From: Bacteroidia bacterium
Lineage (GTDB): Bacteria > Bacteroidota > Bacteroidia > Cytophagales > Cyclobacteriaceae
DNA length: 64,000 nucleotides
Direction: 5' to 3'
Assembly: GCA_030426345.1 (NCBI GenBank)
Contig: JAUHYU010000013.1
Span: 1,286-65,285 of the forward strand
Below are positions 5,301 through 63,966 of the stretch, in pieces. The notes beneath the pieces are model-generated. The model did not search any database. It was not told where the DNA came from and was given only the letters and a program-made list of their open reading frames with translations. Position 1 is the stretch's first letter. Each line of letters starts with the position of its first letter. A program made the position numbers and the translations under genes.

Positions 5301-5320
5301 AAAGCCTTAAAAACCCATGA
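5301..5320. repeat. single copy of window-wide motif (AAAGCCTTAAAAACCCATGA)
   Basis: Read directly from the sequence. Lies in the mnmA/acnA divergent intergenic region. Confidence 0.8.
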
Positions 5321-5383
5321 CTATCAGAACACTATCAGCTATGATTAGTTTATTATAATACGACTATCAAACCAAATGTAATT

Positions 5384-8176
5384 ATGCCTAACGATCCGTT
5401 CAAAGTAAAAAAATCATTAAAGACTAAAACTGGAAGCCATACTTATTATAGCCTTCCGGAACTACAAAAACAAGGTTATAATATCAGCCAACTCCCTTTT
5501 TCCATTAGAATCCTATTGGAAAACGCCTTGCGCAACTATGATGATTTTGCAGTGACCAAGGAAAATATTGAAACACTTTTGAATTGGACGCCAAAGGGAT
5601 CGGACAAGGATATACCATTTAAGCCCGCTCGGGTTTTGATGCAGGATTTTACGGGTGTGCCAGCCGTAGTTGACATTGCATCGCTTCGCGCAGAAGTAGC
5701 TAGAAAAGGGAAAGACCCAAATGGTATAAATCCTCTCATTCCTGTGGATTTGGTTATTGACCACTCGGTGCAGGTAGATTATTTCGGCACACGATATGCG
5801 TACAAACGTAACATGGAGACCGAATACGAGCGGAATACCGAACGCTATCAATTTCTGAAATGGGCTCAAAAATCCTTTGATAATTTCAGTGTAGTTCCTC
5901 CGGGAATGGGCATTTGCCATCAGGTTAATTTGGAATATCTTTCTAAAGGAGTTGTGGAAAGAGATGGGGAGATTTTTCCTGACACGCTAGTGGGAACTGA
6001 CAGTCACACACCCATGGTCAATGGTATCGGAGTGGTGGCGTGGGGCGTTGGTGGCATCGAGGCTGAGGCTGCGATACTTGGTCAGCCCATCTACTTTACC
6101 ATGCCTGAAGTCATTGGTCTCAAACTCACAGGAAAGCTTCCATTGGGATCGACCGCTACGGATTTGGTGCTTAATATTGCTGATTTGTTGAGAAGGCATG
6201 GTGTTGTAGGAAAATTTGTGGAAGTGTTTGGCCCAGGCCTTGATCATCTTTCTGTTCCTGACAGAGCGACCATTGGAAATATGTCTCCTGAATTTGGTTG
6301 TACCATTACTTATTTCCCGATTGACGGTAAAACGCTGGAATACATGCGCAAAAGCAACCGTTCTGAAGAACAAATTGAACTGGTAGAAACCTATTGCAAA
6401 GCCAATATGCTTTGGCGCGAAAATGAGGATAAAATCCATTACACCACTGTTTTGGAATTAGATGTTGCCAGCATCGAACCGACCGTAGCAGGCCCAAAAC
6501 GCCCTCAGGACAAAATTTATCTGAAGAACTTCAAACCTAAATTCATAGATTTATTGGGTCAGTCATTTGGTAGAAATTATATAGAACAAAAAAATAGGGA
6601 GGTAGATCAATCCATCAAACGTATGCAAGGTGAAGGTGGTGATCAGCCCGTTGTCCAACCGAGACATTCCATTCATGGGGAAGAAATTGAAACTGAAGAA
6701 AGGGGCGGATTAAAGACGGTTTGGATCACACAGGATCAAGATAAATTCATGCTTTCTGATGGATCTGTTGTCATTGCAGCTATCACTTCATGTACCAATA
6801 CTTCCAATCCCTTTGTGATGGTCGGGGCTGGATTAGTAGCCAAAAAAGCCAGAGAACGCGGCATCGACATTAAGCCATGGGTAAAAACATCGCTGGCTCC
6901 TGGCTCCAAAGTAGTGACTGATTATCTGGAAAAAGCAGACCTGATGAAAGATTTGGAAGCTTTGCAATTTCATTTGGTAGGATACGGCTGTACTTCTTGT
7001 ATTGGCAATTCCGGTCCGCTCCCTCCCCAAATAGCCAAAGCAGTCGAGGATCATGATTTAGTTGTGGCATCTGTGCTTTCCGGAAATAGGAATTTTGAAG
7101 CACGAGTACACCCGCAAGTGAAAATGAATTTTCTGATGTCTCCTATGTTGGTGGTTGCTTTTGCCATTGCCGGTAGGGTGGATATCGATATGATCCATGA
7201 TCCTATTAGTTTTGATAGAAATGAACAACCTGTTTTCTTAAAAGACATATGGCCAACGGATGATGAGATCAACGAAGTATTGAGTAGGGTGTTGTCACCA
7301 AAAGATTTTGCCAAGAATTACGGTGAGATATTCGAAGGCAATGAGATCTGGAGAAACCTAAAAGTCCCGGAAGGTAAATTATATAAATGGAATTCTGATT
7401 CGACCTACATCAAAGAAATTCCTTTTTTTCATGGAATTTCGGCCCATTCCGAGCCCCTGAATGACATCAATGAAGCAAGGGCTTTATTGGTTTTGGGAGA
7501 TAGCATTACGACAGATCATATTTCACCAGCGGGTTCTTTCAAAGAACATTCTGCTGCAGGCCAATATCTAGTCGGTCGTGGAGTAAAAAGGGAAAATTTC
7601 AATTCATACGGATCCCGACGAGGAAATGACGAAGTTATGGTTCGGGGCACTTTTGCCAACGTCCGGATTAAAAATAAATTGGCAGAAAAAGAAGGTGGAT
7701 ATACCCGTTATTTGCCTACGGGTGAAGAAATGTCTGTTTATGATGCATCGGTAAAATACCAAGCCACGCAGACTCCATTATTGGTTTTGGCAGGAAAAGA
7801 ATATGGCAGCGGCTCATCTAGAGACTGGGCCGCCAAAGGCACATTTCTTTTAGGAATAAAATGTGTACTGGCAGAAAGCTATGAGCGCATCCACCGCAGC
7901 AACTTAGTTGGTTTGGGAGTGCTGCCATTGCAATATAAGCCTGGTGAAAATGCAGCGATCTTAGGAATTACTGGTAAGGAAAAATTTACATTCACTGGCA
8001 TTTCAGAAGGGATCAAACCGCAAAAGGAAATTCAGGTCACTGCCAAAAATGAAGATGGGAAAGAGATAACATTCGAAGTGATAGCGCGACTTGATTCGTT
8101 GATTGAAATTGAATATTACCGCAATGGCGGGATTTTACAATACGTACTGCGCCAGTTTCTTGCAAAGGATAATTGA
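5384..8176 (+). CDS. acnA: aconitate hydratase AcnA
   Basis: 930 aa of the aconitase/IRP family with DSHTPM, SCTNTSNP, GCTSCIGNSG and GSSRDWAAKG. Confidence 0.95.
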   Translation: MPNDPFKVKKSLKTKTGSHTYYSLPELQKQGYNISQLPFSIRILLENALRNYDDFAVTKENIETLLNWTPKGSDKDIPFKPARVLMQDFTGVPAVVDIASLRAEVARKGKDPNGINPLIPVDLVIDHSVQVDYFGTRYAYKRNMETEYERNTERYQFLKWAQKSFDNFSVVPPGMGICHQVNLEYLSKGVVERDGEIFPDTLVGTDSHTPMVNGIGVVAWGVGGIEAEAAILGQPIYFTMPEVIGLKLTGKLPLGSTATDLVLNIADLLRRHGVVGKFVEVFGPGLDHLSVPDRATIGNMSPEFGCTITYFPIDGKTLEYMRKSNRSEEQIELVETYCKANMLWRENEDKIHYTTVLELDVASIEPTVAGPKRPQDKIYLKNFKPKFIDLLGQSFGRNYIEQKNREVDQSIKRMQGEGGDQPVVQPRHSIHGEEIETEERGGLKTVWITQDQDKFMLSDGSVVIAAITSCTNTSNPFVMVGAGLVAKKARERGIDIKPWVKTSLAPGSKVVTDYLEKADLMKDLEALQFHLVGYGCTSCIGNSGPLPPQIAKAVEDHDLVVASVLSGNRNFEARVHPQVKMNFLMSPMLVVAFAIAGRVDIDMIHDPISFDRNEQPVFLKDIWPTDDEINEVLSRVLSPKDFAKNYGEIFEGNEIWRNLKVPEGKLYKWNSDSTYIKEIPFFHGISAHSEPLNDINEARALLVLGDSITTDHISPAGSFKEHSAAGQYLVGRGVKRENFNSYGSRRGNDEVMVRGTFANVRIKNKLAEKEGGYTRYLPTGEEMSVYDASVKYQATQTPLLVLAGKEYGSGSSRDWAAKGTFLLGIKCVLAESYERIHRSNLVGLGVLPLQYKPGENAAILGITGKEKFTFTGISEGIKPQKEIQVTAKNEDGKEITFEVIARLDSLIEIEYYRNGGILQYVLRQFLAKDN

Positions 8177-8205
8177 TATTTGTTAATACACAACTAAGTA
8201 TTTTC

Positions 8206-8553
8206 ATGGAAAAAATAGGCATTAAGCGCATTTATGATGAGGTCGATGGTAAAGATGGCTACCGGATTCTAGTTGACCGAATTTGGCCCAGAGGCCTCAA
8301 AAAAGAAGATGCCCAGGTTGATGAATGGAACAAAGATATTGCCCCATCGACCGAATTGAGAAAATGGTTTGGCCACGAGCCCAAAAAGTATGGCGATTTC
8401 TCTAAGAAATACCGAAAGGAATTAGATAGCAAATCCGAAGAACTCGAACAAATTAGAAATGTGGCAAAAAGACAAAAAGTCACTTTGCTATATGCTGCGA
8501 AGGACAAGAAACATAATCAAGCCCTAGTGCTACAGGAAGTACTAGAATCATAA
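8206..8553 (+). CDS. DUF488 (YeaO-like) family protein
   Basis: YRILVDRIWPRGL and DIAPSTELRKWFGHEP are typical of DUF488. The ATG is at 8206. The ORF-track start at 8173 is a non-ATG codon overlapping the acnA stop. Confidence 0.75.
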   Translation: MEKIGIKRIYDEVDGKDGYRILVDRIWPRGLKKEDAQVDEWNKDIAPSTELRKWFGHEPKKYGDFSKKYRKELDSKSEELEQIRNVAKRQKVTLLYAAKDKKHNQALVLQEVLES

Positions 8554-8579
8554 AAGCTTGTGACCATAAATAAAATACG

Positions 8580-8627
8580 AAAGCCTCTAAAATCCATGGA
8601 TTCATAATCATGGATTTTAGAGGCTTT
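8580..8627. repeat. inverted pair of the motif (19-bp perfect arms, 10-nt loop), terminator-like
   Basis: AAAGCCTCTAAAATCCATG (8580-8598) and CATGGATTTTAGAGGCTTT (8609-8627), followed by TTTTA. Lies downstream of the DUF488 gene. Confidence 0.9.
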
Positions 8628-8704
8628 TTACTGACGAATTTTGTCAAAATAATCCCAACCCAAACTATGGGCATATTCCCTTCTGTCTTACCTTTGCGCC
8701 CGAT

Positions 8705-9806: not shown

Positions 9807-11096
9807 TTACGAAAGCAAAACCCCAGCCAACGTTCCGGTGAGCATTGTGGCCAATGACGCCCCGAGCAAAGCCCGAAGCCCTAGTTTTGAAATGTCCCCC
9901 TGTCTATTTGGAGCCATCCCTCCTATTCCACCTATCTGTATCGCTATGGAACTGAAATTGGAGAATCCGCACAGTGAAAATGTGGCAATGATCATGGATT
10001 TTTCATTCAATAAACCTGCGGCATTCATCTTGGCAAGGTCAAGGTAAGCCACGAATTCATTGATCACAGTTTTTTGACCAAGCAAACTTCCGACTTGCAA
10101 TGTCTCACTCCAATCCACGCCCATTGCGTAAGCAAAAATCCTAAATATGTTTCCCAATACATACTGCAACGAAAATCCATCAAATGTGCCATTGGTGGAC
10201 GTGGCAATCAAATCATTCAATCCTGTAAATTCACCAATTACATCTTTCAAAACATAATTGATCGCTGCAATCACAGCTATAAAGGCCAACAGCATCGCCC
10301 CGACATTCAAAGCCAGTCTAAGTCCATCAGAAGCGCCTCGAGCCAAAGCATCAATCAGATTCACCCCCACTTTTTCATTGTTGATTTTCAACTTATGATC
10401 CAGCTTTTCGTAATTATTTTCAGGAATGAGCAACTTAGCCATTATGATCGCAGCAGGAGCATTCATCACCGATGCGCTCAAAAGAAAAGTGGCGTACTTT
10501 GTTTGTTGTTCGGGATCACCACCCCCTAAAAAAGCTACGTATCCTGCCAAAACTCCTCCTGCTATTGTAGCCATTCCGCCTGTCATCAGGCACATGATTT
10601 CCGATTTGGTCATATCGGGAATAAAGGGGCGCACCAAAAGAGGAGCTTCCGTCTGTCCGAGAAATATATTTGCTGCAGCTGATAAACTTTCCGCCCCTGA
10701 CAATTTCATGGTTTTTGACATGATCCAAGCAAATCCATATACAATTTTTTGTAGTATGCCCAGATAGTACAAGCCTGCCGAAAGCGTGGAAAAAAAGATG
10801 ATCGTGGGAAGCACGTTCAAAGCAAAGATAAATCCATGCTTTTCACCATCGATTAAATTTCCAAATAGAAATGAAGAACCTTCATTCGTAAAATCTATGA
10901 TTTTTACAAAAAATTTACTGGCAAAAACAAATCCGGCATTCACTACATCGACTTGCGTGATGAGCATGCCAAGCGTGACCTGCAGCAGCAAGCCACCGAT
11001 TACGAGTTTCCAGTAGATGGATTTTTTGTCTTCCGAGAATACCCAAGCAATGCCAATAATAAAAATAATACCTAAGCATGCCTTGAGAATTTGCAT
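9807..11096 (-). CDS. NupC/NupG-family concentrative nucleoside transporter
   Basis: 429-aa polytopic protein with CNT-like GAESLSAAANIFLGQTEAPLL and TGGMATIAGGVLAGY. Confidence 0.85.
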   Translation of the reverse strand: MQILKACLGIIFIIGIAWVFSEDKKSIYWKLVIGGLLLQVTLGMLITQVDVVNAGFVFASKFFVKIIDFTNEGSSFLFGNLIDGEKHGFIFALNVLPTIIFFSTLSAGLYYLGILQKIVYGFAWIMSKTMKLSGAESLSAAANIFLGQTEAPLLVRPFIPDMTKSEIMCLMTGGMATIAGGVLAGYVAFLGGGDPEQQTKYATFLLSASVMNAPAAIIMAKLLIPENNYEKLDHKLKINNEKVGVNLIDALARGASDGLRLALNVGAMLLAFIAVIAAINYVLKDVIGEFTGLNDLIATSTNGTFDGFSLQYVLGNIFRIFAYAMGVDWSETLQVGSLLGQKTVINEFVAYLDLAKMNAAGLLNEKSMIIATFSLCGFSNFSSIAIQIGGIGGMAPNRQGDISKLGLRALLGASLATMLTGTLAGVLLS

Positions 11097-13526: not shown

Positions 13527-13847
13527 ATGAACTCCGACCGTCTCGAACAACTTTTAGAATTTTATAAAGAAGACCCAAACGATCCATTCAACATCTATGC
13601 ACTAGCCACTGAATACAAATCATCTGCTCCTGAAAAAGCCCTGGAATTCTACGAATTGTTAATTGCAAACCATCCTGACTATGTAGCTACGTACTACCAC
13701 CTTGGGCACTTATACGAAGAAATAGGTGAAGATGACAAGGCCAAAACTACCTACGAAAAAGGAATTGAAGTGGCAAGCACACAAAAAAATAGCTTGGCAT
13801 TACGTGAACTTAAAAGCTCCTATGATGAATTTATGATGGATTTTTAA
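13527..13847 (+). CDS. tetratricopeptide-repeat protein (small)
   Basis: The ORF-track start at 13464 is a TTG. The first ATG, at 13527, gives MNSDRLEQLLEFYKEDPNDPFN. TPR-like helices follow (ALEFYELLIANHPDYVATYYHLGHLYEEIGEDDKA). Confidence 0.6.
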   Translation: MNSDRLEQLLEFYKEDPNDPFNIYALATEYKSSAPEKALEFYELLIANHPDYVATYYHLGHLYEEIGEDDKAKTTYEKGIEVASTQKNSLALRELKSSYDEFMMDF

Positions 13848-13908
13848 TGATTTCGGTTTAGCTCCCATCCCCTTGCCTCCGTTTTTTTTATAAAAAACCT
13901 CCATTTTA

Positions 13909-18973: not shown

Positions 18974-21424
18974 ATGACATGCCAGCACAATGATCCAATG
19001 AAAATAATTCGATTCATAATCTCATTTTCTATAACTGCTACCGTGGTCGTTGCCATGAATATTAAAATTGGGCCCATGCCTCCTTTGGGGAAGTTTATGG
19101 ATCCATTTCATGGATTTTGGGCCACTTCTACGGCTGCGATGGACATACCGGAACAAATTTATATGGAGGGACTTCATCAACCGGTTAGGATATTATATGA
19201 TGATATGTTGGTGCCACACATTTTCGCAGAAAACGACGATGATCTTTACCAAGCAGTTGGGTACGCACATGCCTTTCATCGGTTGTGGCAGATGGAATTC
19301 CAGACTCATGCAGCGGCGGGCAGGCTTTCTGAAGTCGTCGGCAATATCACATTGGATATGGACAGAGGCCAACGGAGGAAAGGATTGGTATTTGGGGCTG
19401 AAAATTTCGTGAATAATTTGGATGAAGATGCTGAAAGGATTTTAAATAATTATACCAAAGGCGTAAATGCATACATAAATCAATTGGACTATGCTGATTA
19501 TCCTTTTGAGTACAAATTGTTGGATTATGCTCCGGAGCCATGGACTCCATTAAAAACTGGCTTGCTATACAAATACATGTCTGACATGCTCAATTCAGGC
19601 GAGCGAGATATAGAAAACACAAATTTCAGGTCGATATATGGTAAAGAATTGCTGGACTTGATCTACCCTGATGTTGACAGCTACATCGACCCTGTAGTTG
19701 ACCTCCCCGGAGGTTGGGGTTTTACTCCTATCACCAAAAGACTTGATGAGTCAAAAGACACAGAAAAGGATGTTATTTCCATGAAACTTCTAGATCAGCC
19801 ACACCGGAATAATGGAAGCAATAACTGGGCAGTTGGTCCTGAAAGATCTGCCACCGGAAATGCATTCCTTGCTAATGATATGCATCTAAGCCTTTATTTG
19901 CCTTCGCTTTGGTTTTACAATCAAATGCATACAAAATCCATGAACGTATTCGGGCATAGCCTGCCGGGCATTCCATTTGTGATCACCGGGTTTACAGATT
20001 CAATCGCATGGGGGTTTACCAATGCACAGCGAGATCTTGTCGATTGGTACAAAATTAAATTTGAAGATGAAGGTAGAAGCAGATACCTACTTGACGGAGA
20101 ATATGTAGCAACTCAAAAAAAAGTTGAAAAATTTCATATTCGAGGTGCAGACACCTTTTACGACACGGTGGTTTATTCCGTCTTTGGGCCGGTCACTTAC
20201 GACAATTCCTTTCATGGGAAATCAGGCAAAAACGGCTATGCCCGACGTTGGATAGACCATGATGCATCTACCGGATTTAATATGTTTTATCAAATCAATA
20301 GAGCCAAAAACTTCGATGATTACATGGCTGCTCTTGACCAATTCACCTCCCCTGCTCAAAATATTGTCTTTGCATCGGTACAGGGTGATATTGCTCACAG
20401 GGTACAGGGAAAGTATCCATTAAACAATAAAGAGGAAGGCAAATTCGTAAAGGATGGCACAAAATCTTCCAATAACTGGACGGAGTATATTCCCAATGAA
20501 CAAAATCCCTTTTGGAAAAATCCCACGAGAGGATTCGTATCCTCAGCCAACCAGCAGCCTGCTGATTCCACCTATCCATATTATATTACATCCAGACAAT
20601 TTGAATCCTACAGAAACAGGCGAATCAATGATTTGTTGCGAGCAGATAGCAGCATTACTTTAGCGGATCTAAAAAAATTACATTTTGATAATTATGGTCT
20701 CAAAGCATCAGAAAGTTTGCCATTTATGATCCAACAATTAAATGGTGCCAACCTCTCTGCACAAGAACAGGATATCATCCAGCAATTAAAATCATGGGAT
20801 TTTTACTATAATATGGACACTAAAGCTGCTGTATACTACGATATCTGGTATAATAACTTATACGAAGGAATTTGGGATGAAATCGACAGCGCTCAAAATC
20901 AGAATATTGCCCTATTCTACCCAACAGATTTTTCTACCATCAAACTGATGCAGCAATTTCCCTCCTTGCCATTTTTCGATAACGCTGCAACACCACCTGA
21001 GAAGGAAACTGTAAAAGACCTTGCGCTTTCTTCGTTCAGAGGAATGATTCAAAAAGTGTCTGAAATCCATGATAAGGGAATTGATTCCTGGTCGGAGTAT
21101 TCCGCAACTGAGGTGAACCATCAATTGCGGATTCCTTCACTTGGCTACAGCTACATTGCCACAGGTGGCAGTGGAGATGGCGTAGTCAACGCCACGGGTA
21201 CTAACCATGGCCCCAGTCAGCGAATCATTGTCGAGTTGGACCCCAAAGGAGTAAAAGCCTGGGGACATTACCCCGGAGGACAATCCGGAAATCCGGGAAG
21301 TAAGTTTTATAACGACATGGTTGAAGCATGGGCCGATGGCACTTATTTCGACCTGCTTTATTTAGATCACATCGATTCGTCGAATGAGCGGGTTATTTTT
21401 TCACAAACGCTAAGTCCTAATTAA
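18974..21424 (+). CDS. penicillin acylase family Ntn-hydrolase (possible acyl-homoserine-lactone or beta-lactam acylase)
   Basis: 816 aa. The nucleophile context NNGSNNWAV sits after a spacer, with alpha/beta chain architecture. An alternative start at 18998 (MKIIRFIISF) gives a cleaner signal anchor. Confidence 0.8.
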   Translation: MTCQHNDPMKIIRFIISFSITATVVVAMNIKIGPMPPLGKFMDPFHGFWATSTAAMDIPEQIYMEGLHQPVRILYDDMLVPHIFAENDDDLYQAVGYAHAFHRLWQMEFQTHAAAGRLSEVVGNITLDMDRGQRRKGLVFGAENFVNNLDEDAERILNNYTKGVNAYINQLDYADYPFEYKLLDYAPEPWTPLKTGLLYKYMSDMLNSGERDIENTNFRSIYGKELLDLIYPDVDSYIDPVVDLPGGWGFTPITKRLDESKDTEKDVISMKLLDQPHRNNGSNNWAVGPERSATGNAFLANDMHLSLYLPSLWFYNQMHTKSMNVFGHSLPGIPFVITGFTDSIAWGFTNAQRDLVDWYKIKFEDEGRSRYLLDGEYVATQKKVEKFHIRGADTFYDTVVYSVFGPVTYDNSFHGKSGKNGYARRWIDHDASTGFNMFYQINRAKNFDDYMAALDQFTSPAQNIVFASVQGDIAHRVQGKYPLNNKEEGKFVKDGTKSSNNWTEYIPNEQNPFWKNPTRGFVSSANQQPADSTYPYYITSRQFESYRNRRINDLLRADSSITLADLKKLHFDNYGLKASESLPFMIQQLNGANLSAQEQDIIQQLKSWDFYYNMDTKAAVYYDIWYNNLYEGIWDEIDSAQNQNIALFYPTDFSTIKLMQQFPSLPFFDNAATPPEKETVKDLALSSFRGMIQKVSEIHDKGIDSWSEYSATEVNHQLRIPSLGYSYIATGGSGDGVVNATGTNHGPSQRIIVELDPKGVKAWGHYPGGQSGNPGSKFYNDMVEAWADGTYFDLLYLDHIDSSNERVIFSQTLSPN

Positions 21425-21786: not shown

Positions 21787-21805
21787 ATGATAAAATCAGA
21801 AGAAA

Positions 21806-21825
21806 AAAGCCTTCAAAATCCATGA
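21806..21825. repeat. single copy of motif (AAAGCCTTCAAAATCCATGA)
   Basis: Lies between the convergent genes ending at 21786 and 21857. Confidence 0.8.
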
Positions 21826-21856
21826 ATCATACTTTCGTAGTTCTTTAATGGCTACT

Positions 21857-23848: not shown

Positions 23849-23982
23849 GTTAATCTATAAAAATTAGTTGCTAAATTCTTTAAAAATCAACCCTCGTCAG
23901 AGAGCGGTATTATCTCTAAATATTTGTGTCCTTTACTGAAGTTTATTGATTGATGACTGATAATTGTCTAAAAAATAATGAA

Positions 23983-24017
23983 GGTATGGGAGAATAATAA
24001 AACTAAGCTCCCATACC
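23983..24017 (-). terminator. rho-independent terminator after the SusD gene
   Basis: 10-bp stem GGTATGGGAG/CTCCCATACC. On the minus strand it is followed by TTCATTATTTTTTAG. Confidence 0.7.
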
Positions 24018-24049
24018 CTCATGGCATTATTTATTTGATCACTGCAAGA

Positions 24050-29445: not shown

Positions 29446-30474
29446 TTACATAGGCATCTCGTTTTTATTATCAGCATATATTTCTACAGTATCTCCCTTT
29501 ATTTTGAATTCGAAATTGTGGACAAAAGAAATTCCATTCAAAACATCTTCCAGGGTTTCATTTTTAAAATTTCCACTATAATGGAAACTATTCTCTAATA
29601 CGTCGGATGTGACGAACTCAACTCCATACCAATCTTCTAATTTCACAATGATCTCTTTCAACGAATTATCATTAAATACTAGAGTTCCATCCTTCCAACC
29701 AACTTTATTCATGTAGTCAAATTCCTTAATTTCCAAAATGCCCTTCCGATCCATGACAGCAGCCTTGCCAGGATTTAAAATAACAAATTGCCCATTGGTT
29801 TCCTCTACTTTTACCTGCCCGGTAACTAGCGCAACCTCTATACGGTTGTTTTTACTATTAACATTAAAACTTGTACCAAGTGCCGTTGTAGAAACTCCAT
29901 TGGCAATAACTCGGAATGGATTCAACGAATCTTTCTTTACCTCAAAAAATGCTTCTCCTTCTAATTGAACCAGCCTTTCATTGCCTTCGTATGAAGTTTT
30001 ATATTTGATCTTACTTTGTGAATTCAATATGACCTTAGAGCCATCCGGAAGATAGACCGTGAGCTTTTGTCCTTTTGGGTTTTCCTTCACCATTTCATGG
30101 GCCAACTCTACTTGTTGTACTTGTTCACCTGGATTATTCATAAAGTACAACAGACCGGCAAACGTAAAGAAAACTATAAAAATTGCTGCGACCTTGCCCC
30201 AGTTGGATTTCCGGGCTCTGCTAATTTCATGGATTTTGACCCCTTTTTCAGCTAAGTTTCCTTTTGATCTCGACTTTAACTTGGCATATGCGCTTTCAAC
30301 ATCCTTAGACTCCACCTTCAACTGGCTGGATTCCCAATAACTTTTTATTGATTCAAAAATGGCTTTGTGATCTGGATTTTCATTCATCCATTCTCTGAGT
30401 ATTTCAATCTCATTGGTGGTGGCATCTCCTTGCAAAAAGGCCAAAATGACATTGTCTATATTTGGATGTTCCAA
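29446..30474 (-). CDS. FecR-family anti-sigma factor
   Basis: 342 aa with a single central TM helix. The FecR core is LPDGSKVILNSQSKIKY...LEGEAFFEV, followed by a C-terminal DUF4974-like domain. Confidence 0.88.
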   Translation of the reverse strand: MEHPNIDNVILAFLQGDATTNEIEILREWMNENPDHKAIFESIKSYWESSQLKVESKDVESAYAKLKSRSKGNLAEKGVKIHEISRARKSNWGKVAAIFIVFFTFAGLLYFMNNPGEQVQQVELAHEMVKENPKGQKLTVYLPDGSKVILNSQSKIKYKTSYEGNERLVQLEGEAFFEVKKDSLNPFRVIANGVSTTALGTSFNVNSKNNRIEVALVTGQVKVEETNGQFVILNPGKAAVMDRKGILEIKEFDYMNKVGWKDGTLVFNDNSLKEIIVKLEDWYGVEFVTSDVLENSFHYSGNFKNETLEDVLNGISFVHNFEFKIKGDTVEIYADNKNEMPM

Positions 30475-37682: not shown

Positions 37683-37772
37683 GTATCAATAATTGAAGTA
37701 TGCTTTTATTGATAAGGAAGAGAGAATTGAAAATATACCCTTCGAAACAGAAAAAATAAGTGTGTTTTTTCG

Positions 37773-45020: not shown

Positions 45021-45080
45021 CTACATTATATCTTTCATTCACTAGTCTATGGAATAATTTCAAACATTTCGAGTCGCTTT

Positions 45081-45119
45081 CATGGATTTTAAGTGCATTA
45101 AAGCCTTCAAAATCCATGG
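45081..45119. repeat. inverted pair of motif (CATGGATTTTAAGTGC...AAAGCCTTCAAAATCCATGG)
   Basis: Lies immediately downstream of the DUF418 stop at 45120. Confidence 0.8.
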
Positions 45120-46379
45120 TTATTTGAAACTATTGTAGGTGAGTTTTCTCCACAGCCATTCGAGCGGGCCTTGTTTATATCTTTTCATCCAAAGCCAGCT
45201 AAGGGTAATTTGAATTGTCCAGATGATCACGACAATCCCCAACAATTCAAACCTCGAATAGTGATTGAATTTGGCCAATCCATAACCATAAAATATCAAG
45301 CCCATCAAAATATTTTGAAAAATGTAATTCGTAAGTGCCATTCTGCCTATGGTAGAAACAATCTTAAACTGGACGCTCTGCAGATACTTTTGATAAATGC
45401 CATTAAAAACCATGATATAGGCAATTCCTAAAATCTCCTTTGGAAATGTGAAAATCCACCCTTTCCAAATGCTCAGAACCGGATCGAAATATGCATAGGT
45501 CCATTGATAATATCGGAAATAGTTTATCGTCAATCCGAGGGTCAATAGTCCCAAACTTATGAACCAATAGTATTTCCAAACATGGTAATCTGCAAAAATC
45601 CCCGACCTGTAAAGCACAATGCCCAGAATCATGGCGATCAATGATGGAAACAGTAACCCCTGATAATATAAAAGCCCCTTGTGCGCACTGGCGTGTTCAT
45701 ACGTCTCTTTGAGACCGGATAGATAGGTTTCCTTCGGCATAGCGACCTGAGAAGTATCTGGTGCTTTTTTGATCAACTTGTCCTGCCAAAATTCAATTTT
45801 CTTGATATCCTCCGCTGCCCTCATATTTTCGGGAATTTTACTTGCACTGACAAATTCTTTCAGCCAACCTTGTTTGCGCATGGTCAGTTCATAGGATTTA
45901 ATCAATTGGAGGGAACAAAGCAAAACAACTACCAGGAGCAGGTTTTTATTTCCAATAGACCGAAAAGGAAATAACAGCAGGCCGCAAATGGCATAATGAT
46001 AAAGAACATCTCCCGACCAAATAAAATAAGCGTGAACAATGCCAATCACGAAAAGCCAAAGCAATCTTCTTGCATAGATATCCATGGCTTGTAGTCCTAT
46101 ATTCTTTTTCTCCAGGCGTTCCAAAAAAATGTAAAAACCAACCCCAAACAGCAAAGCAAACATATTATAGAATTTCCCCTGGGTCAAAAAATAAACCCAG
46201 AACCGGGTAGCATGATCAATCGAACTGTCAAACCCGAACTTCCACGGGCTCCATGGATCAGGATAGGCAAAACTCTCGATATTGATAAACAGTATGCCAA
46301 GTATGGCTATTCCCCTCAGGAAATCCAGTGATGGGATCCTTTCTGACTTTTGGGTGGGTTTTATGGAATTTTGAGGCAT
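45120..46379 (-). CDS. DUF418 (YeiB-like) membrane protein
   Basis: RIPSLDFLRGIAILGILFINIESF at the N-terminus, polytopic, with the C-terminal GPLEWLWRKLTY typical of DUF418. Confidence 0.8.
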   Translation of the reverse strand: MPQNSIKPTQKSERIPSLDFLRGIAILGILFINIESFAYPDPWSPWKFGFDSSIDHATRFWVYFLTQGKFYNMFALLFGVGFYIFLERLEKKNIGLQAMDIYARRLLWLFVIGIVHAYFIWSGDVLYHYAICGLLLFPFRSIGNKNLLLVVVLLCSLQLIKSYELTMRKQGWLKEFVSASKIPENMRAAEDIKKIEFWQDKLIKKAPDTSQVAMPKETYLSGLKETYEHASAHKGLLYYQGLLFPSLIAMILGIVLYRSGIFADYHVWKYYWFISLGLLTLGLTINYFRYYQWTYAYFDPVLSIWKGWIFTFPKEILGIAYIMVFNGIYQKYLQSVQFKIVSTIGRMALTNYIFQNILMGLIFYGYGLAKFNHYSRFELLGIVVIIWTIQITLSWLWMKRYKQGPLEWLWRKLTYNSFK

Positions 46380-46451
46380 TTTAATTGTTTACGAATGGTT
46401 AGGTCTTTTAAGCCACATGAAATTGATTACATATCGTTGGAAGTCCTAGTT

Positions 46452-47216: not shown

Positions 47217-47343
47217 TGAAATTGTCTGATGTTTTCTATCTCCCTAATAATTGAATACAGGAGTATTTACCTGTGTCATAACCAATTCAAATCTATGAAA
47301 TAATCCTGTGGTCGGACAGGCATAAAAGGATATTTCACTCCTA

Positions 47344-47363
47344 AAAGCATCTAAAATCCATGA
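47344..47363. repeat. single copy of motif (AAAGCATCTAAAATCCATGA)
   Basis: Lies in the divergent region between the DUF2971 gene and sulfatase 47493. Confidence 0.8.
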
Positions 47364-47492
47364 ATGTGTAGTAAGCTAAAATTTATACCGAAGAGAAACA
47401 ACATAAAATGCAATGATGAATCTAAAGCCTATTCAAGGTTTGAAAGCATATCAATTCGGCTTAAATTGTCTCCCATCACAAATTAAAGACCT

Positions 47493-52480: not shown

Positions 52481-52522
52481 CTAAAAAGCCTTTAAAATCC
52501 ATGGATTTTAAAGGCTTTTTAG
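52481..52522. repeat. perfect 42-bp palindrome made of two motif copies fused at CCATGG
   Basis: CTAAAAAGCCTTTAAAATCCATGGATTTTAAAGGCTTTTTAG. Lies 30 nt downstream of the TonB-receptor stop. Confidence 0.95.
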
Positions 52523-55079: not shown

Positions 55080-55138
55080 AAAGTCCGAATTGGATTATTT
55101 AAAATACGGTATTAATTCATGGATTCATGGTGCATTTT

Positions 55139-55948
55139 TCAATGCGATGCAGACCTGTACTCCATGGGTGTCATGGCGGTGAGTGATTTAAAAAATTTAT
55201 TGAAGTTGGAAGCATCGCTAAAATCCAACTGATAGGCAATTTCTGATATTGTGAGGCTGGTATGGGAAATGAGATTTTTAGCCTCAATAATTATGCGCTC
55301 TTTAATGATGTTTTGTGCGGAAGATTGCATCACTTTTTGGCATATAGTATTTAGTCTGTGTGTGCTGATTTTCATCAAATCTGCATAATCTGAAACCTTT
55401 CGTAGCTGCAAAAAGTGCTTGTCAATTAGCTTTTTAAAAGTATTAAAATCCGCAAGAAGAAAATCATCTATCTGTGATTCACCACCCTCAAGGGAAATCG
55501 TCTTTATGATAATGAGATTGAGATATGCACTTAGAATTTCATGGGATTCACCTGCTTTGAACAACTTATAAAATCGTTCTACAAGATGAATGAGTTCTCC
55601 ATCTCCAGAAAACTCAAAAATCTTTGAAAGCTTAAAGAGGCCATTCAAAGTAGTTGGATAGTTGTTCAAAAAATCTTCTTTAAAAAGTATTACAAATCCA
55701 TCGGGAATCTGGGAAAAATCCCAACAATGCACGCTTCCCGGACTTAGGTAAAATCCATCAAACGGTTTAACTTCAAACAACTTGTCATCAACTGAATGAG
55801 TACCAGAACCTCTCGACAGATAAATCAGTTCATGGTATCCCGCATGTTTATGGGGTTTGGTCGGTTTGATCACAGGCTTCATCCGTGAAACCTTCACCAG
55901 CATATCCTCATCTAATTTCTTCTTCAATCCGATCGATCCCGATGACAT
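55139..55948 (-). CDS. AraC-family transcriptional regulator with cupin-like sensor domain
   Basis: N-terminal cupin-like HKHAGYHELIYLSRGSGTH...GSVHCW. C-terminal double HTH ...ISEIAYQLDFSDASNFNKFFKSLTAMTPMEYR. Confidence 0.9.
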   Translation of the reverse strand: MSSGSIGLKKKLDEDMLVKVSRMKPVIKPTKPHKHAGYHELIYLSRGSGTHSVDDKLFEVKPFDGFYLSPGSVHCWDFSQIPDGFVILFKEDFLNNYPTTLNGLFKLSKIFEFSGDGELIHLVERFYKLFKAGESHEILSAYLNLIIIKTISLEGGESQIDDFLLADFNTFKKLIDKHFLQLRKVSDYADLMKISTHRLNTICQKVMQSSAQNIIKERIIIEAKNLISHTSLTISEIAYQLDFSDASNFNKFFKSLTAMTPMEYRSASH

Positions 55949-60854: not shown

Positions 60855-60907
60855 TTAGCAATTTAATCATTTTTGTGTATTGCCAAATGATGATTTCGAG
60901 AAGAGTT

Positions 60908-60928
60908 GATGGATTTTAGGGGGTTTTT
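60908..60928. repeat. motif variant GATGGATTTTAGGGGGTTTTT overlapping the stop of the HEAT gene
   Basis: On the minus strand it reads AAAAACCCCCTAAAATCCATC. The TAA stop lies inside it. Confidence 0.65.
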
Positions 60929-61458
60929 ATTTGGTTGTCTTCGATATAAGCCTCAAGATCGCTCAACATCTCTTCCACTTCCGTCTTGCGCAGTTCATAT
61001 ATCTCGTCCTGTTTAACGTTGTTAGAATAATGGTTCCAGTGCTTTTTGGCTTTTTTCAAAACCCTAGCGGTAATATCAAATTCTTTGAAATCAAGTAGGT
61101 TTTTAGCCAACGTGGATACCTTAAAACTTCCCGTAAGGTACAGTTTGAATATCGGCACATAAACCGTGCTTACATCAAATCCATCCAGTGCCATCAAAAG
61201 ATCACCTGCTATTTCCGCATTGCTTGGATCGTGAATGGCTTCCAAAAGTGGGGCCAATCCGTCTGAATTATTTTCTACCAATCCCAACGTTCGGGCCGCG
61301 ATGATCCTCGACTCCGGGTTAGGATGATGCAGCAATTCAATCATGGAATTTACAACACTTTCAGAGCCAATCCTGACCAAAGAATCAGAGGCTTTATATG
61401 CCCTGTCTTGAAGTTCCCCGGTGAGCTGCTCTACTAGATGAGTTATATCTACTGCCAT
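60916..61458 (-). CDS. HEAT-repeat protein
   Basis: 180 aa with HEAT-like helices (LLHHPNPESRIIAARTLGLV, LLEAIHDPSNAEIAGDLLMAL). Confidence 0.6.
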   Translation of the reverse strand: MAVDITHLVEQLTGELQDRAYKASDSLVRIGSESVVNSMIELLHHPNPESRIIAARTLGLVENNSDGLAPLLEAIHDPSNAEIAGDLLMALDGFDVSTVYVPIFKLYLTGSFKVSTLAKNLLDFKEFDITARVLKKAKKHWNHYSNNVKQDEIYELRKTEVEEMLSDLEAYIEDNQIKTP

Positions 61459-61564: not shown

Positions 61565-62035
61565 CTATTTCTCTATAATCGGTTTTAAGGCTGCCGGAGA
61601 ATATTTGATGGATTTTAGGGTTTTTTTGTCTCCTTTACGGAATACGAGGTAATGTCCATCCACTTCCTCATAATAGCTATCGACACCTTTGCTTTCTTTA
61701 TAATATTGAATGGTGGACTCAGCTTCGTCTACTGTCGCACAACTTTTACTCATATTCGACCGCTGCACTTCATCAAATAAATCCCTGAATTTCTCCCCTA
61801 AACCAAATTCTAAAACTGCACCGCTCAGAACGTACTGGATGTCGCACAAGGCATCGGCAACTTCCACGATGTCTTTATCTTTTATAGCTGCTTCCAATTC
61901 TTCTAACTCCTCTCTAATTAAAGAAACACGCAGCTCACATCTTTTTTCAGCAGGTATGGTAGGTTCCTTTTCTATTGGGTGTTTGAATGTGCGATGAAAT
62001 TCCGCAACTTGATTTAATGCATCTAAAACCTTCAT
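61565..62035 (-). CDS. MazG-like nucleoside triphosphate pyrophosphohydrolase family protein
   Basis: 156 aa with the all-alpha NTP-PPase signature LIREELEELEAAIKDKDIVEVADALCDIQYV. Confidence 0.7.
   Translation of the reverse strand: MKVLDALNQVAEFHRTFKHPIEKEPTIPAEKRCELRVSLIREELEELEAAIKDKDIVEVADALCDIQYVLSGAVLEFGLGEKFRDLFDEVQRSNMSKSCATVDEAESTIQYYKESKGVDSYYEEVDGHYLVFRKGDKKTLKSIKYSPAALKPIIEK
61607..61627. repeat. motif variant GATGGATTTTAGGGTTTTTTT inside the 3' end of the MazG-like ORF
   Basis: Shares the 14-mer GATGGATTTTAGGG with the copy at 60908. Confidence 0.65.
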
Positions 62036-63051: not shown

Positions 63052-63075
63052 ATTTTCCTAAATCAGACATTGAAA

Positions 63076-63100
63076 AGGCCGGTAATACCGGCCTTTTTTT
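63076..63100 (+). terminator. rho-independent, potentially bidirectional terminator
   Basis: GGCCGG-TAATA-CCGGCC stem-loop flanked by AAAA upstream and TTTTTTT downstream. Lies between convergent genes. Confidence 0.85.
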
Positions 63101-63112
63101 GTTTTCTACCAA

Positions 63113-63147
63113 CCCTAAATAAACCCATGGATATTAGGGGCTTTTTT
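63113..63147. repeat. imperfect palindromic motif copy (…AAACCCATGGATATTAGGGGCTTTTTT)
   Basis: Lies between convergent genes, just after a GC-rich terminator. Confidence 0.7.
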
Positions 63148-63966
63148 CTAAAAATCAAACTGCATGGGGTCAGGATACTTAAACTCAAATTTCGTTTTGC
63201 TCAATAGATAACCTGATGACACTTCCTTGCCAAACGTATTATCTTTCTCGCTAAATATTGGTGGTGCAAGACTAATGGAATCAGCCATTTTCGTATAGAA
63301 ATCCGTTTTTGTGGGATGAACAGGTGCTACAACATTAAAAATTTCATTCTCGACAGTATTTTCCAGCATATAGGTAATAACTCCAATGGCATCATTGAGA
63401 TGAAGATAGTTGACAGGATGGGCTCCGGAAGATGACAACTCACGGCCAGCCAAAAATCGCCCCGGATGTCTTTCCGGCCCGGCCAACCCACCAAACCTCA
63501 AGATGACATGTGGGATCTTTGATTCCATTATTGCCTTTTCGGTTTCTAAGATAGCTTTTCCGGAAGATGTCTGAGGCTGTGGCGCTACTTTTTCATCGAC
63601 GAAAACCTCAGTGTTTCCATACACCGAAGTCGAACTGACAAACACAATTTTCTTTATGGATTTTACCTGCTTCGCGATGCGCAGTAGTTGCACGATTGAA
63701 TTTGGATAGTCTTCCCGAACATTAGGATTTTTACGGCCTGGTGGAATATTGATCACCAAGTAATCAGTTGAAAGCATCTCAAAATCCATGAATTCAGGGT
63801 CGGGAAACTTCAGCAAAAAAGGCATAATGCCAACATCCTGCAATTGCTGAATTTTTGTTTTGTTTGTAGTTGTTCCATGGATTTTCCACCCTTTTTTTAG
63901 CATCAGTCGACTTAAGGGCAATCCCAGCCAACCGCAACCAACTACACATAGTGTGCTACTTCTCAT
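63148..63966 (-). CDS. NAD(P)-binding Rossmann-fold protein (SDR / NAD-dependent epimerase-like)
   Basis: 272 aa with the N-terminal VVGCGWLGLPL dinucleotide-binding loop. Confidence 0.7.
   Translation of the reverse strand: MRSSTLCVVGCGWLGLPLSRLMLKKGWKIHGTTTNKTKIQQLQDVGIMPFLLKFPDPEFMDFEMLSTDYLVINIPPGRKNPNVREDYPNSIVQLLRIAKQVKSIKKIVFVSSTSVYGNTEVFVDEKVAPQPQTSSGKAILETEKAIMESKIPHVILRFGGLAGPERHPGRFLAGRELSSSGAHPVNYLHLNDAIGVITYMLENTVENEIFNVVAPVHPTKTDFYTKMADSISLAPPIFSEKDNTFGKEVSSGYLLSKTKFEFKYPDPMQFDF

Follow-up and report, generated by a model that had tools for sequence, protein, structure and literature searches.

The window analysed here (the whole stretch of 64,000 nt) carries on both strands, at ~0.8 arms per kb (about once per kb), a roughly 21-nt asymmetric motif, and we conclude that this motif is a lineage-specific "self" word acting at the level of double-stranded DNA. 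To our knowledge, such a genomic signature is so far known only from the DNA-uptake sequences (DUS/USS) of Neisseria and Haemophilus. By analogy with these, we tentatively propose that the motif may function in DNA uptake as a self-recognition tag.

Anatomy and abundance of the word

The initial annotation had taken an over-represented 10-mer, AAAATCCATG, as the unit. The true unit is longer: an arm AAAGC(C/A)TYN-AAAATCCATG-R-A (its consensus also written AAAGCCTYN-AAAATCCATG-RA), in which the 10-mer is the core. All 19 exact core copies reported earlier were found in place, and one overlooked copy (37674-37683, + strand) brings the number in the window to 20 over both strands. Among 100 dinucleotide shuffles of the window the core occurred on average 0.63 times (maximum 3), and Markov models of orders 1-3 gave an expectation of 0.7-0.9; models of orders 4-5 already take up some of the motif, yet gave 1.8-3.0, still far under 20. 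The earlier observation is confirmed and is stronger than first reported (20 against about 0.6-0.9 expected). Allowing at most one mismatch to the core, we observed 63 matches, against 15.0 expected and a maximum of 25 in the shuffles. The one-mismatch copies pointed out previously do exist; those at 37815, 60908 and 61607 were correctly placed, while those given at 5311, 9789 and 38375 actually start at 5310, 9788 and 38370.

The commonest 8-, 9- and 10-mers of the window are AAAATCCA (46 copies), AAAATCCAT (35) and AAAATCCATG (20). A 25-nt matrix retrieved 51 arms, compared with ~1.4 in Markov null sequences; these matrix counts are partly circular, because the matrix was trained on the window copies, whereas the exact and one-mismatch counts are free of this circularity. 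Arms occur within genes, at gene ends and in terminator hairpins (Table 1). They are unevenly spread, with 12 matches in 4.2 kb around the FecR/sigma/DUF6786 genes and ~10 kb of SusC/SusD genes nearly arm-free. The density recurs outside the window, as flanking DNA that had not been selected (L001, 3.9 kb) has three arm matches. The source is an uncultured Cytophagales-like bacterium, of which some 68 kb of sequence was covered; abundance genome-wide is an extrapolation, since a scan of GTDB gave no genome with many copies of the motif. The motif had no match in Rfam.

Table 1. Coordinates of arms, pairs and variant copies in the window
Feature	Position	Strand	Remarks
Variant arm TGAAAACCCTCTAAAATCCATAGCC, ribulose-phosphate 3-epimerase (RPE) C-terminus	1029..1053	-	24 nt before stop
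Variant arm, core AAAACCCATG, intergenic	5298..5322	+	62 nt upstream of aconitase gene
Head-to-head full-arm pair	8577..8630		cores 8589-8598 + and 8609-8618 -
Variant arm CAAAAAGCCTCTAAAACCCATGAAA	9776..9800	+	19 nt past COX15 stop
Coding copy, NupC nucleoside transporter	9990..10014	-	sense; GAA AAA TCC ATG = EKSM
Variant arm (AAAATCCATCATA), TPR gene 3' end	13832..13856	-	antisense
Coding copy, penicillin amidase gene	19106..19130	-	antisense
Coding copy, penicillin amidase gene	19921..19945	+	sense; upstream block AAATGCAT; 27.1 bits
Single full arm AAAAAAGCCTTCAAAATCCATGAAT, intergenic	21803..21827	+	17 nt past stop of + strand gene; 29.6 bits; partnerless
Coding copy, FecR anti-sigma gene 1	30225..30249	-	sense; 26.6 bits
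Full-arm coding copy (TGAAAAGCCTCCAAAATCCATGATG), FecR gene 2 linker	36954..36978	-	sense; 27.8 bits
Coding copy, FecR gene 2	37425..37449	-	sense; position conserved in L160
Variant copy (AAAATCCATCAAC), FecR gene 2	37606..37630	-	sense; position conserved in L160
Exact 10-mer across FecR start codon (ATG GAT TTT = MDF)	37662..37686	+	antisense
Full-arm coding copy, conserved DUF6786 domain	38549..38573	-	CTA AAG CCT CAA AAA TCC ATG ACC = LKPQKSMT
Coding copy, DUF6786 (CAA AAT CCA TGG = QNPW)	39021..39045	-	sense; L160 has CAA AAT ACA TGG
Variant copy (AAAATCCATA), sulfatase gene	40531..40555	-	sense; position conserved in L160
Coding copy, sulfatase gene	40710..40734	-	sense; position conserved in L160 as ...CCATC variant
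Tail-to-tail pair	45078..45121		cores 45081-45090 - and 45109-45118 +
Single full arm, GCAT variant CTAAAAGCATCTAAAATCCATGAAT, intergenic	47341..47365	+	128 nt upstream of sulfatase gene; 28.9 bits
Perfect 38-nt palindrome AAAAAGCCTTTAAAATCCATGGATTTTAAAGGCTTTTT	52482..52521		two overlapping arms, cores 52494 + and 52500 -
Weak variant arm	55115..55139	-	directly past AraC-family gene stop; 15.0 bits
Variant arm TAAAAACCCCCTAAAATCCATCAAC	60905..60929	-	overlaps HEAT-repeat gene stop codon; 27.6 bits
Variant arm CAAAAAAACCCTAAAATCCATCAAA, PRA-PH gene	61604..61628	-	39 nt before stop
Variant arm AAAAAAGCCCCTAATATCCATGGGT	63123..63147	-	directly past epimerase gene stop; upstream of separate GC-rich terminator
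Coding copy, epimerase-family gene	63769..63793	+	antisense; GCAT-type upstream block
Coding copy, epimerase-family gene	63873..63897	-	sense; 25.7 bits

Copies inside genes

As had been noted before, eleven exact copies are wholly contained in ORFs and use all three frames (9 sense and 2 antisense); one more overlaps a start codon. Under a synonymous-codon null, 1.13 sense and 0.31 antisense exact copies were expected. The corresponding matrix matches of at least 14 bits were 22 sense (5.5 expected) and 11 antisense (2.4 expected), and those of at least 18 bits were 18 (2.05) and 4 (0.52). The coding enrichment over this null is ~4-9-fold and similar for both strands, and none of 500 codon shuffles reached the observed number of sense copies or matrix matches. 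With coding copies this far above the synonymous-codon shuffle, a protein motif is not the source of the excess, in agreement with the initial annotation. We concluded that the motif is a DNA-level feature, neither protein- nor RNA-level. The AAAG(C/G) upstream block described earlier is also real and is kept even by deep-coding copies, which have A at -9 and -8 in 13/16 cases and G at -6 in 11/16.

Comparison with homologous genes shows that the coding copies originated in place by point substitution, without indels. At the NupC site, the relative L020 has GAA AGA TCC ATG (ERSM) and more distant relatives have DKSL or GKSL, with no indel. In the DUF6786 protein, whose Pfam alignment spans profile positions 1-374 of 376, a 12-homologue alignment had no indel at site 38549; the window protein reads KPQKSMTH there, and other family members read APNESMTH or ESGQSMEH. 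The DNA of this site is identical from CTAAAG to CCATGAC in the relative L160, while six flanking synonymous sites differ. At the RPE C-terminus the L022 orthologue reads GATGATCCTCTGCAAACCATT; the window arm differs from it by seven substitutions, each of which brings the window arm closer to the consensus, and both proteins are 219 aa long. Some new copies alter amino acids, chiefly where constraint is poor and at gene ends. The two copies in the epimerase-family gene (63769 + and 63873 -) are convergent, their cores being 85 nt apart. Two weak copies are explained by conserved peptides, FDGF of NupC (10160) and the UVR motif YEKAAKIRDE (11129), both of which are kept in motif-free relatives.

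Gene ends and hairpins

Of the 51 arms, 13 are sense-oriented and no more than 50 nt from a stop codon, where 1.9 would be expected (p = 4e-8). Arms are maintained one by one, and single arms outnumber inverted pairs. The loops of the pairs are unrelated and 0-17 nt long, and both head-to-head and tail-to-tail geometries occur. Hairpins of the inverted pairs have folding energies of -29 to -35 kcal/mol (z = -7.6 to -9.8) and A-run/T-run flanks, and should act as bidirectional intrinsic terminators. Such a role is limited to the pairs, because single arms form no structure; ordinary GC-rich terminators are also used by this genome.

The pair at 8577..8630, situated 24 nt past the stop of the DUF488 gene, is predicted to form a hairpin with a 21-bp stem, an 8-nt loop and a T-run behind it (-30.5 kcal/mol when folded as RNA, z = -9.8). 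The palindrome AAAAAGCCTTTAAAATCCATGGATTTTAAAGGCTTTTT, 31 nt past the stop of the TonB-dependent receptor gene, looks like a bidirectional terminator (-28.6 kcal/mol, z = -7.6). In the tail-to-tail pair, which adjoins the DUF418 gene stop, the stem is built from the cores and the loop holds the upstream blocks (-17.8 kcal/mol, z = -5.7).

Distribution among relatives and other populations

A relative with ~77-82% nucleotide identity, in which many of the coding copies hold the same positions, carries the motif at densities of 0.95 (L020) and 1.16 per kb (L160). Nine arms of the window are kept in position in L160 (77% overall identity), with a mean arm identity of 0.87 against a background of 0.78; the copies thus persist in place across about 20% nucleotide divergence. 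Relatives at ~70% nucleotide identity are essentially motif-free (L022, 0.05 per kb; L023, 0; L157, 0.16), and a motif-bearing contig of Ga0164315, another population from one metagenome, encodes a DUF418 protein 75% identical to that of the motif-free L023. The same arm and the same palindrome AAAAAGCCTTTAAAATCCATGGATTTTAAAGGCTTTTT are present in unrelated genomic contexts on the Ga0164315 contigs and on MAG contig L006; the unrelated metagenome contig L054 has an identical copy of this 38-mer. Intergenic single arms of Ga0164315 run in the direction of the upstream gene in 9 cases and opposite to it in 4, and on its contigs arms also form clusters of two to four between genes. In L143 and L072, arms have IS110 and DDE transposase genes nearby. 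The uneven spread in the window and the patchy range among relatives were both counted against a role in uptake.

Possible functions of the word

The parallel to DUS/USS that had been drawn earlier holds for the anatomy: copies stand alone, pair up in inverted orientation where genes end and lie in genes regardless of frame, and they match DUS/USS on the structural features testable here. By this analogy, the word would probably be read by a putative sequence-specific DNA-binding receptor. A competence receptor would favour word-bearing DNA fragments, recombination of the favoured fragments would push the word to high density (molecular drive), and selection would keep it to sites that tolerate it, while pairs would be taken into use as terminators. 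About half of true uptake sequences, and >90% of their inverted repeats, are in terminators; their reading frames are biased and dialects exist (bioRxiv 10.1101/2025.10.24.684340). Inside genes they show orientation and gene-terminus bias, e.g. 245 vs 123 (PMC2346458). Bacteroidota include naturally competent members, and Riemerella columbina prefers its own DNA, no motif having been found there (PMC7965970). In line with the initial annotation, our literature searches found no uptake sequence or other such element described in Bacteroidota, and a Pfam search of the window found no competence gene. Entire families share DUS and USS, unlike this motif with its narrow or patchy range, and its distribution is therefore atypical for an uptake sequence.

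A somewhat unlikely alternative to uptake is that the word is the site of another abundant, lineage-specific, sequence-specific double-stranded-DNA-binding protein, such as a nucleoid-organising factor, a termination/3'-end factor or a self/non-self marker for a defence or repair system; selection for that function, and not uptake bias, would then keep each copy. Strand-symmetric enrichment, the build of core plus upstream block, the positional and slightly raised sequence conservation of copies and their local clustering are all consistent with it, as are the strong stop-codon enrichment and the orientation of arms with the upstream gene, also seen in Ga0164315. A protein gained only recently would also fit the narrow range of lineages. 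However, the unstructured single arms leave a terminator role for pairs only, beside the ordinary terminators, and we know of no bacterial DNA-binding protein, uptake receptors excepted, with a ~20-bp site at ~1 per kb in coding DNA.

We consider it rather improbable that the word is a REP/BIME- or MITE-like selfish palindrome that a RAYT, an IS200-like enzyme or a similar transposase has spread as one unit; single arms would then be halves left by decay, and coding copies would be near-matches due to chance. The pairs are often consistently imperfect, a GCCTTC arm facing a GATGC arm with conserved mismatches, as in strand-specific REP hairpins; the Ga0164315 clusters recall BIMEs, and the patchy distribution and nearby transposase genes point the same way. 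Against this, coding copies exceed the codon-shuffle null and arise by substitution, with no indels, in conserved domains, singles are more numerous than pairs, the loops differ from copy to copy without any relation, and arms pair in both geometries. The window has no GTAG-type REP head, target-site duplication or Y1 transposase (Pfam for genes), and no partner arm was found past the IS110 element in L143.

A by-product of methylation or very-short-patch repair at CATG/CCATGG, or restriction-modification pressure, is disfavoured and seems very improbable. The core includes CATG, CCATGG is present in 7/20 exact copies, and HIP-type palindromes of cyanobacteria are linked to methyltransferases. 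But CATG (278 vs 289 expected) and CCATGG (31 vs 35.5) are neither enriched nor avoided overall, and what is conserved is an asymmetric word of 21 nt, which in most copies reads CCATGA. The HIP1 analogy drawn initially thus fails, because the palindromic part is not enriched alone.

Still harder to credit is a polar motif of the chromosome, be it a Chi-like hotspot of recombination or a KOPS-like sequence that orients FtsK. Matrix matches number 31 on the - strand, the probable leading strand (base counts give a negative GC skew for the + strand), vs 20 on the + strand, but this skew is weak (61%) and is accounted for by gene orientation and the coding-compatible strand; sense and antisense fold enrichments are equal, with no residual strand association (Fisher p = 0.23-0.64). 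Moreover, Chi- and KOPS-like motifs are 5-8 nt long without inverted pairs, unlike these arms.

Finally, chance, codon usage, conserved peptides or assembly artefact, which account for a few weak matches (the two conserved peptides above), have a negligible probability and are refuted for the bulk of copies, as neither the 100 window shuffles nor, for sense copies and matrix matches, the 500 codon shuffles reached the observed counts, stretches of 9.8 kb (L024), 5.2 kb (L025) and 1.8 kb (L002) agree without any difference between independent assemblies of the same population, and copies are kept in a different species-level relative.

Abundance and anatomy of the word

The 10-mer AAAATCCATG was present in 20 exact copies on the two strands of the 64-kb window, against 0.63 on average (at most 3) in dinucleotide shuffles and an expectation of 0.7-0.9 from Markov models of order 1-3, so that it lies far above chance, as the initial annotation had claimed. 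That annotation had listed 19 copies by eye; all 19 coordinates were right, and one copy, at 37674-37683 on the + strand, had been overlooked. The one-mismatch copies that it reported are real, although three of their coordinates were 1-5 nt off. With up to one mismatch allowed, we observed 63 matches where 15.0 were expected. The commonest 8-, 9- and 10-mers of the window were AAAATCCA (46 copies), AAAATCCAT (35) and AAAATCCATG itself.

From the flanks of the 35 AAAATCCAT copies we obtained the consensus AAAGC(C/A)TYN-AAAATCCATG-(A/G)-A, an asymmetric unit of about 21 nt referred to here as the arm. Its upstream block had been noticed by eye inside genes as well, and it indeed persists in the copies lying more than 45 nt inside ORFs, with A at −9 and −8 in 13 of 16 and G at −6 in 11 of 16. 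Using a 25-nt scoring matrix, 51 arms were found in the window at 14 bits or more, compared with 0-5 (mean ∼1.4) in Markov-1 random sequences; the matrix was trained on the window copies and is partly circular, whereas the exact and one-mismatch counts are free of this circularity. The k-mer counts of the window also revealed TTTCCATGAA, AAAAACCATG and AAAATCCATCAA as secondary over-represented words, which are variant arms. Over ∼80 kb examined in all (window, flank and a relative), the arms occur on both strands at 0.8/kb in the window and at a similar density in the flanking DNA and the relative, comparable to the ∼1/kb of the uptake sequences DUS and USS.

Enrichment at the level of double-stranded DNA

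Eleven of the 20 exact copies lie fully inside ORFs and one more lies across a start codon; among the 51 arms, 35 are in ORFs or over an ORF boundary, several of them within conserved domains. These counts were compared with a codon null, in which synonymous codons were permuted within each of the 48 ORFs 500 times. The exact coding copies exceeded this null in both orientations, and a protein motif, as the initial annotation had maintained, cannot explain the excess. A few weak matches are conserved peptides only, namely FDGF of NupC and the UVR motif YEKAAKIRDE, both of which are also found in motif-free relatives.

Coding copies under the codon null (observed/expected; orientation relative to the gene containing the copy)
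Match class	Sense	Antisense
Exact 10-mer	9 / 1.13	2 / 0.31
One mismatch	23 / 9.2	15 / 8.7
Matrix, ≥14 bits	22 / 5.5	11 / 2.4
Matrix, ≥18 bits	18 / 2.05	4 / 0.52

The 9-mer shows a raw sense excess of 19:7 in genes, which had prompted an RNA-level reading. This reading was dropped, as the enrichment over the codon null was nearly equal for sense and antisense copies; the raw excess arises mainly because the A-rich word suits the coding strand better. The equal fold enrichment on both strands argues against a function at the mRNA level and for a feature of double-stranded DNA. By eye, the reverse complement of the motif does not fit the Bacteroidetes −7 promoter box (TAnnTTTG), and the motif ATGs that were inspected as possible start-codon contexts are out of frame or have immediate stops.

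Coding copies arise in place

We compared orthologous genes, as had been suggested in the initial annotation, and observed in-place substitutions in three of them. In NupC, the window reads GAA AAA TCC ATG (EKSM) and an 82% identical relative reads GAA AGA TCC ATG (ERSM); DKSL or GKSL stands at this site in more remote relatives, and every NupC compared is 429 aa long. The RPE C-terminus is GAAAACCCTCTAAAATCCATA in the window and GATGATCCTCTGCAAACCATT in L022, a nearly motif-free relative, with 219 aa in both; there are seven substitutions between them, four of which change the amino acid, all toward the arm consensus. In the DUF6786 gene the full arm, CTA AAG CCT CAA AAA TCC ATG ACC, is read as LKPQKSMT inside a domain aligned to positions 1-374 of the 376 of the Pfam profile; the site is indel-free in a 12-member alignment, where other members have APNESMTH or ESGQSMEH. 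These alignments indicate that substitutions in place gave rise to the coding copies. As with DUS and USS, then, copies in several frames have been made by substitution beyond what protein and codon usage account for, as judged from the codon shuffles and the indel-free orthologues.

The positions also persist. For nine arms of the window, L160, a contig of the relative GCA_019825925.1, has a counterpart at the corresponding position, with a mean identity of 0.87 against a background of 0.78. At 38549, the stretch of the arm from CTAAAG to CCATGAC is identical in L160, while the two sequences differ at six synonymous sites in the flanks. In the strain contig L001 (99% identity), we found one substitution in a weak arm (window 3822) and none in strong copies, a comparison that is uninformative on this point; three further contigs (L002, L024 and L025) show no difference from the window.

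Gene ends, hairpin pairs and local density

Of the 51 arms, thirteen are in sense orientation and no more than 50 nt from a stop codon, where 1.9 were expected (p = 4e-8). Most arms in the window are single; partner arms were sought for the single copies and none were found, nor any predicted fold. All three inverted pairs of the window follow stop codons and are predicted terminators, like the gene-end stem-loops of DUS and USS, and two of the three have A- and T-run flanks. An Rfam scan of the window gave no family at the gathering score. Conventional GC-rich terminators are also used in this genome; two of them are found alongside the arm-based hairpins, and an arm at 63123 lies directly upstream of a GC-rich terminator.

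Coordinates of features in the window and in comparison contigs
Feature	Position	Structure	Context	Predicted folding
Inverted pair	8577-8630	21-bp stem, 8-nt loop	24 nt past stop codon	−30.5 kcal/mol, z = −9.8
Perfect 38-nt palindrome	52482-52521	Flanks A5 and T5	31 nt past stop codon	−28.6 kcal/mol, z = −7.6
Tail-to-tail pair	45078-45121	Stem of cores only	After a stop codon	−17.8 kcal/mol, z = −5.7
GC-rich intrinsic terminators GGCCGGCACAAGGCCGGCC and AAAAAGGCCGGTATTACCGGCCTTTT	36560-36600 and 63060-63100 (− strand)
Low-GC block	41833-47216	GC 0.29-0.35
ECF-sigma genes	23306-38387	Three in series
Tandem duplication TAAGTACAC	3306-3314	9 nt	Near S8 protease gene start
TCGTAAGT	1201, 14105, 20202, 21882, 45329, 52417, 62819
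Diverged arm AAAAAGTCCCTAAATCCCATGATGC	L020:2538-2591 (reverse strand)	Single arm	Downstream of NupC
IS110-family transposase gene	L143:829-2064		∼290 nt from arms
DDE transposase gene	L072:260-1567		∼290 nt from arms
Unrelated repeat (…TCGTTCTTGTGTGCAACTAGGACAGGAGAGCATAGCATTTTATAATG…)	L093:2130-2822 (− strand)	∼45 nt, twice	Intergenic, between arms

The local density is uneven. A cluster of twelve matches occupies 4.2 kb at the FecR, sigma, DUF6786 and sulfatase genes (p = 2e-4), and two SusC/SusD pairs (∼10 kb) hold at most one weak match. Of the three ECF-sigma genes, two are each part of a full sigma / FecR anti-sigma / SusC / SusD locus, and the third adjoins a SusD gene and has no FecR gene of its own; both SusC proteins carry a FecR_C-like N-terminal domain. 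Arms are dense in the FecR and sigma genes at 36.6-38.4 kb and nearly missing from the SusC and SusD genes. The low-GC block has five genes, of which DUF6920, Reg_prop, a 127-aa hypothetical and DUF2971 are free of arms and the remaining one, a DUF418 gene of typical GC (0.40), has four matches. As its four low-GC genes lack arms, the block may have been acquired recently. Across the genes, arm density showed no link with GC content and a weak one with GC3.

According to Pfam, the window is ordinary Bacteroidota chromosomal DNA, with housekeeping genes (aconitase, ETF, RPE, MnmA, COX15 and NupC), three ECF-sigma genes, sulfatases and a T9SS-sorted protease. Cyclobacteriaceae and Cytophagales MAGs provide its nearest named homologues, and the same sequence was found in metagenome assemblies only. 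None of the 48 ORFs matched competence families (ComEC, DprA and others), with ∼68 kb of the genome covered.

Other carriers and phylogenetic range

A metagenome scan for AAAGCCTYNAAAATCCATG gave at least 120 loci. Among the matches listed, ∼23 were short contigs from two related JGI samples, Ga0164315 (21) and Ga0164313 (2), most of which carry at least two arms; three near-identical contigs from Ga0180433 and Ga0180437 have one arm each, and nearly all other loci listed have one isolated match, which is chance level. The Ga0164315 contigs have nothing in common with the window besides the element. They show single arms as in the window, direct pairs at 90-350 nt spacing, and inverted pairs in which the arms are conserved and the loops (0-17 nt) are unrelated; many of the pairs combine a GCCTTC-type with a GCATC-type arm, which results in two conserved mismatches. 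The 38-nt palindrome of the window is identical in one further contig (L054) and near-identical in L035, L079 and the MAG contig L006.

Matrix matches (≥14 bits) in the window and in comparison contigs
Contig	Relation	Matches per kb
Window	Reference	0.80
L001	Same species; includes 3.9 kb past the window with 3 matches	0.63
L020	GCA_019825925.1 relative, 77-82% nt identity	0.95
L160	GCA_019825925.1 relative, 77-82% nt identity	1.16
L022	∼70% nt identity	0.05
L023	∼70% nt identity	0
L157	∼82% aa identity in NupC	0.16

The word is thus common to the GCA_019825925.1 contigs, where positions are kept, and to the Ga0164315 population, and it is missing at ∼70% identity; the motif-free relatives L022 and L023 have neither a hyper-abundant word of their own nor shared hairpins. 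The DUF418 protein of one Ga0164315 contig (L119) shares 75% identity with its counterpart in motif-free L023. Carriers and nearly motif-free relatives hence fall in one family-level clade, and the distribution is narrow or patchy. In L020 the variant arm AAATCCCATG occurs, which may be a dialect. Downstream of NupC, L020 has a single diverged arm; in the window, the neighbouring DUF488 gene is followed by a complete hairpin.

A GTDB scan for the 19-mer gave 17 loci, near chance apart from L006 and L018; the representatives do not include the source species, and no many-copy genome was found among the GTDB species representatives. Two contigs of one MAG, Dive100_bin10.8, differ: L018 (JAJRQT010000235.1) has three exact copies in 8 kb and L022 (JAJRQT010000203.1) has none in 21 kb, which could result from mis-binning or a transferred segment. 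A scan of viral contigs gave 10 loci with one match each and no further arms, and hence no phage link.

Comparison with known systems and interpretation

The closest systems are the DUS of Neisseriaceae (AT-GCCGTCTGAA) and the USS of Pasteurellaceae (AAGTGCGGT plus flanks). In the literature, uptake sequences and sequence-selective DNA uptake are documented in these two proteobacterial families only. About half of the uptake sequences lie in terminators, as do more than 90% of their inverted repeats, and frame bias and dialects are described (bioRxiv 10.1101/2025.10.24.684340); in genes, one orientation is ∼2-fold as frequent, with a bias to the gene terminus (PMC2346458). Like these, the arm is a specific asymmetric word spread over genes and intergenic DNA, with coding copies where substitution is tolerated, biases of orientation, reading frame and gene terminus, singles beside variable-loop inverted pairs forming (here predicted) terminators, positions kept between related species, variant forms in relatives, and atypical low-GC genes lacking it. 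Unlike them, it is of unrelated sequence, longer (∼21 nt with an upstream block), from a host in Bacteroidota (Cytophagales-like) and much narrower or patchier in range, and it is known from sequence alone, not from competence, a receptor or an uptake preference.

Hyper-abundance, the ∼21-nt asymmetric unit, enrichment in double-stranded DNA, in-place origin by substitution, positional persistence of individually maintained arms, terminator-like hairpin pairs, gene-terminus bias and lineage restriction are each also documented for DUS and USS. By this analogy, we propose that the word may be read by a DNA-uptake receptor and would spread via biased uptake followed by recombination, a mechanism that we consider possible at somewhat less than an even chance. 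We remain cautious mainly because the range is narrow or patchy, because the local density is uneven and because the sequence examined amounts to ∼80 kb. Slightly more tentative is the proposal that it is the first DNA uptake (self-recognition) sequence outside Proteobacteria, a ∼21-nt self tag for a competence receptor in an uncultured Cytophagales-like member of Bacteroidota. Natural competence exists in this phylum, and Riemerella columbina favours its own DNA, though no motif was found there (PMC7965970).

It is unlikely, but deserves serious weight, that the word is the site of another abundant DNA-binding protein. If uptake is not involved, the upkeep of a 21-nt word at ∼1/kb within the conserved coding domains of so narrow a lineage would point to a strong and as yet unknown force acting on DNA, be it a binding protein or drive.

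A selfish palindrome of the REP or MITE kind is improbable. The REP/BIME elements with RAYT of Enterobacteria, Pseudomonas and others resemble the arms in being short, imperfect palindromes that are specific to a lineage and follow genes, with some clustering and a possible terminator or mRNA-stabiliser role. Nonetheless, REPs lie outside genes, are mobile as entire hairpins and have a conserved GTAG head, whereas arms are often genic, born by substitution and mostly single, with unrelated loops of 0-17 nt and no GTAG head; this explanation is contradicted by copies that sit in genes, lack indels and have variable loops. No cognate Y1 (RAYT) transposase was found in the window or in the comparison contigs examined. 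Neither was there an insertion relative to orthologues, and the varying arm spacing does not fit the fixed unit, TIRs and target-site duplications of a MITE.

Methylation-linked, polar-motif and chance explanations are minor. HIP1 (GCGATCGC) of cyanobacteria, to which the word had been likened, is also a hyper-abundant short word of coding and non-coding DNA, kept in place and of unknown function, but it is a short perfect palindrome, and the arm is long and asymmetric. CATG (278 vs 289 expected) and CCATGG (31 vs 35.5) are at expectation in the window, which speaks against methylation, restriction or a HIP1-type mechanism as the cause, and that analogy was abandoned. Chi and KOPS are over-represented oligomers within genes too; however, they measure 5-8 nt, show a strong skew to one replication strand and never form hairpin pairs. 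The matrix matches, 31 on the − and 20 on the + strand of a window that may not span a replication switch, fall short of the skew above ∼75% of such polar motifs. Replication- versus transcription-strand bias was not significant and was inseparable from gene orientation, with no residual association given gene strand, so that the weak skew is accounted for by coding and argues against Chi- or KOPS-type motifs.

Judged by its anatomy in sequence, the arm is a new, unrelated variant of the class of hyper-abundant genomic words, in a new phylum; a literature search for the 10-mer and 11-mers gave primer matches only and no relevant context. If it is an uptake sequence, free-living Bacteroidota would have sequence-selective natural transformation, uptake sequences would have an independent third origin, and motif-driven self-recognition would evolve repeatedly. 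To our knowledge, Bacteroidota generally lack type IV pili, and such an independent case would imply a new kind of receptor. It would also bear on the origin of uptake sequences and their build-up at terminators and gene ends, which are still debated, and would offer a handle for genetic manipulation and gene-flow tracking in uncultured Cytophagales.

Minor features of the window and comparison contigs

Another word, TCGTAAGT, occurs in seven copies against 0.9 expected (Markov order 3), with no common flanks. In the Ga0164315 contigs, transposase genes of two kinds lie close to arms (L143 and L072); a second arm beyond the IS110 element, as would follow from insertion into a hairpin, was sought in L143 and none was found, which leaves such an insertion unsupported. 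A third contig of this sample, L093, carries an unrelated intergenic repeat between arms. The 9-nt tandem duplication of the window is absent from the 99% identical L001.
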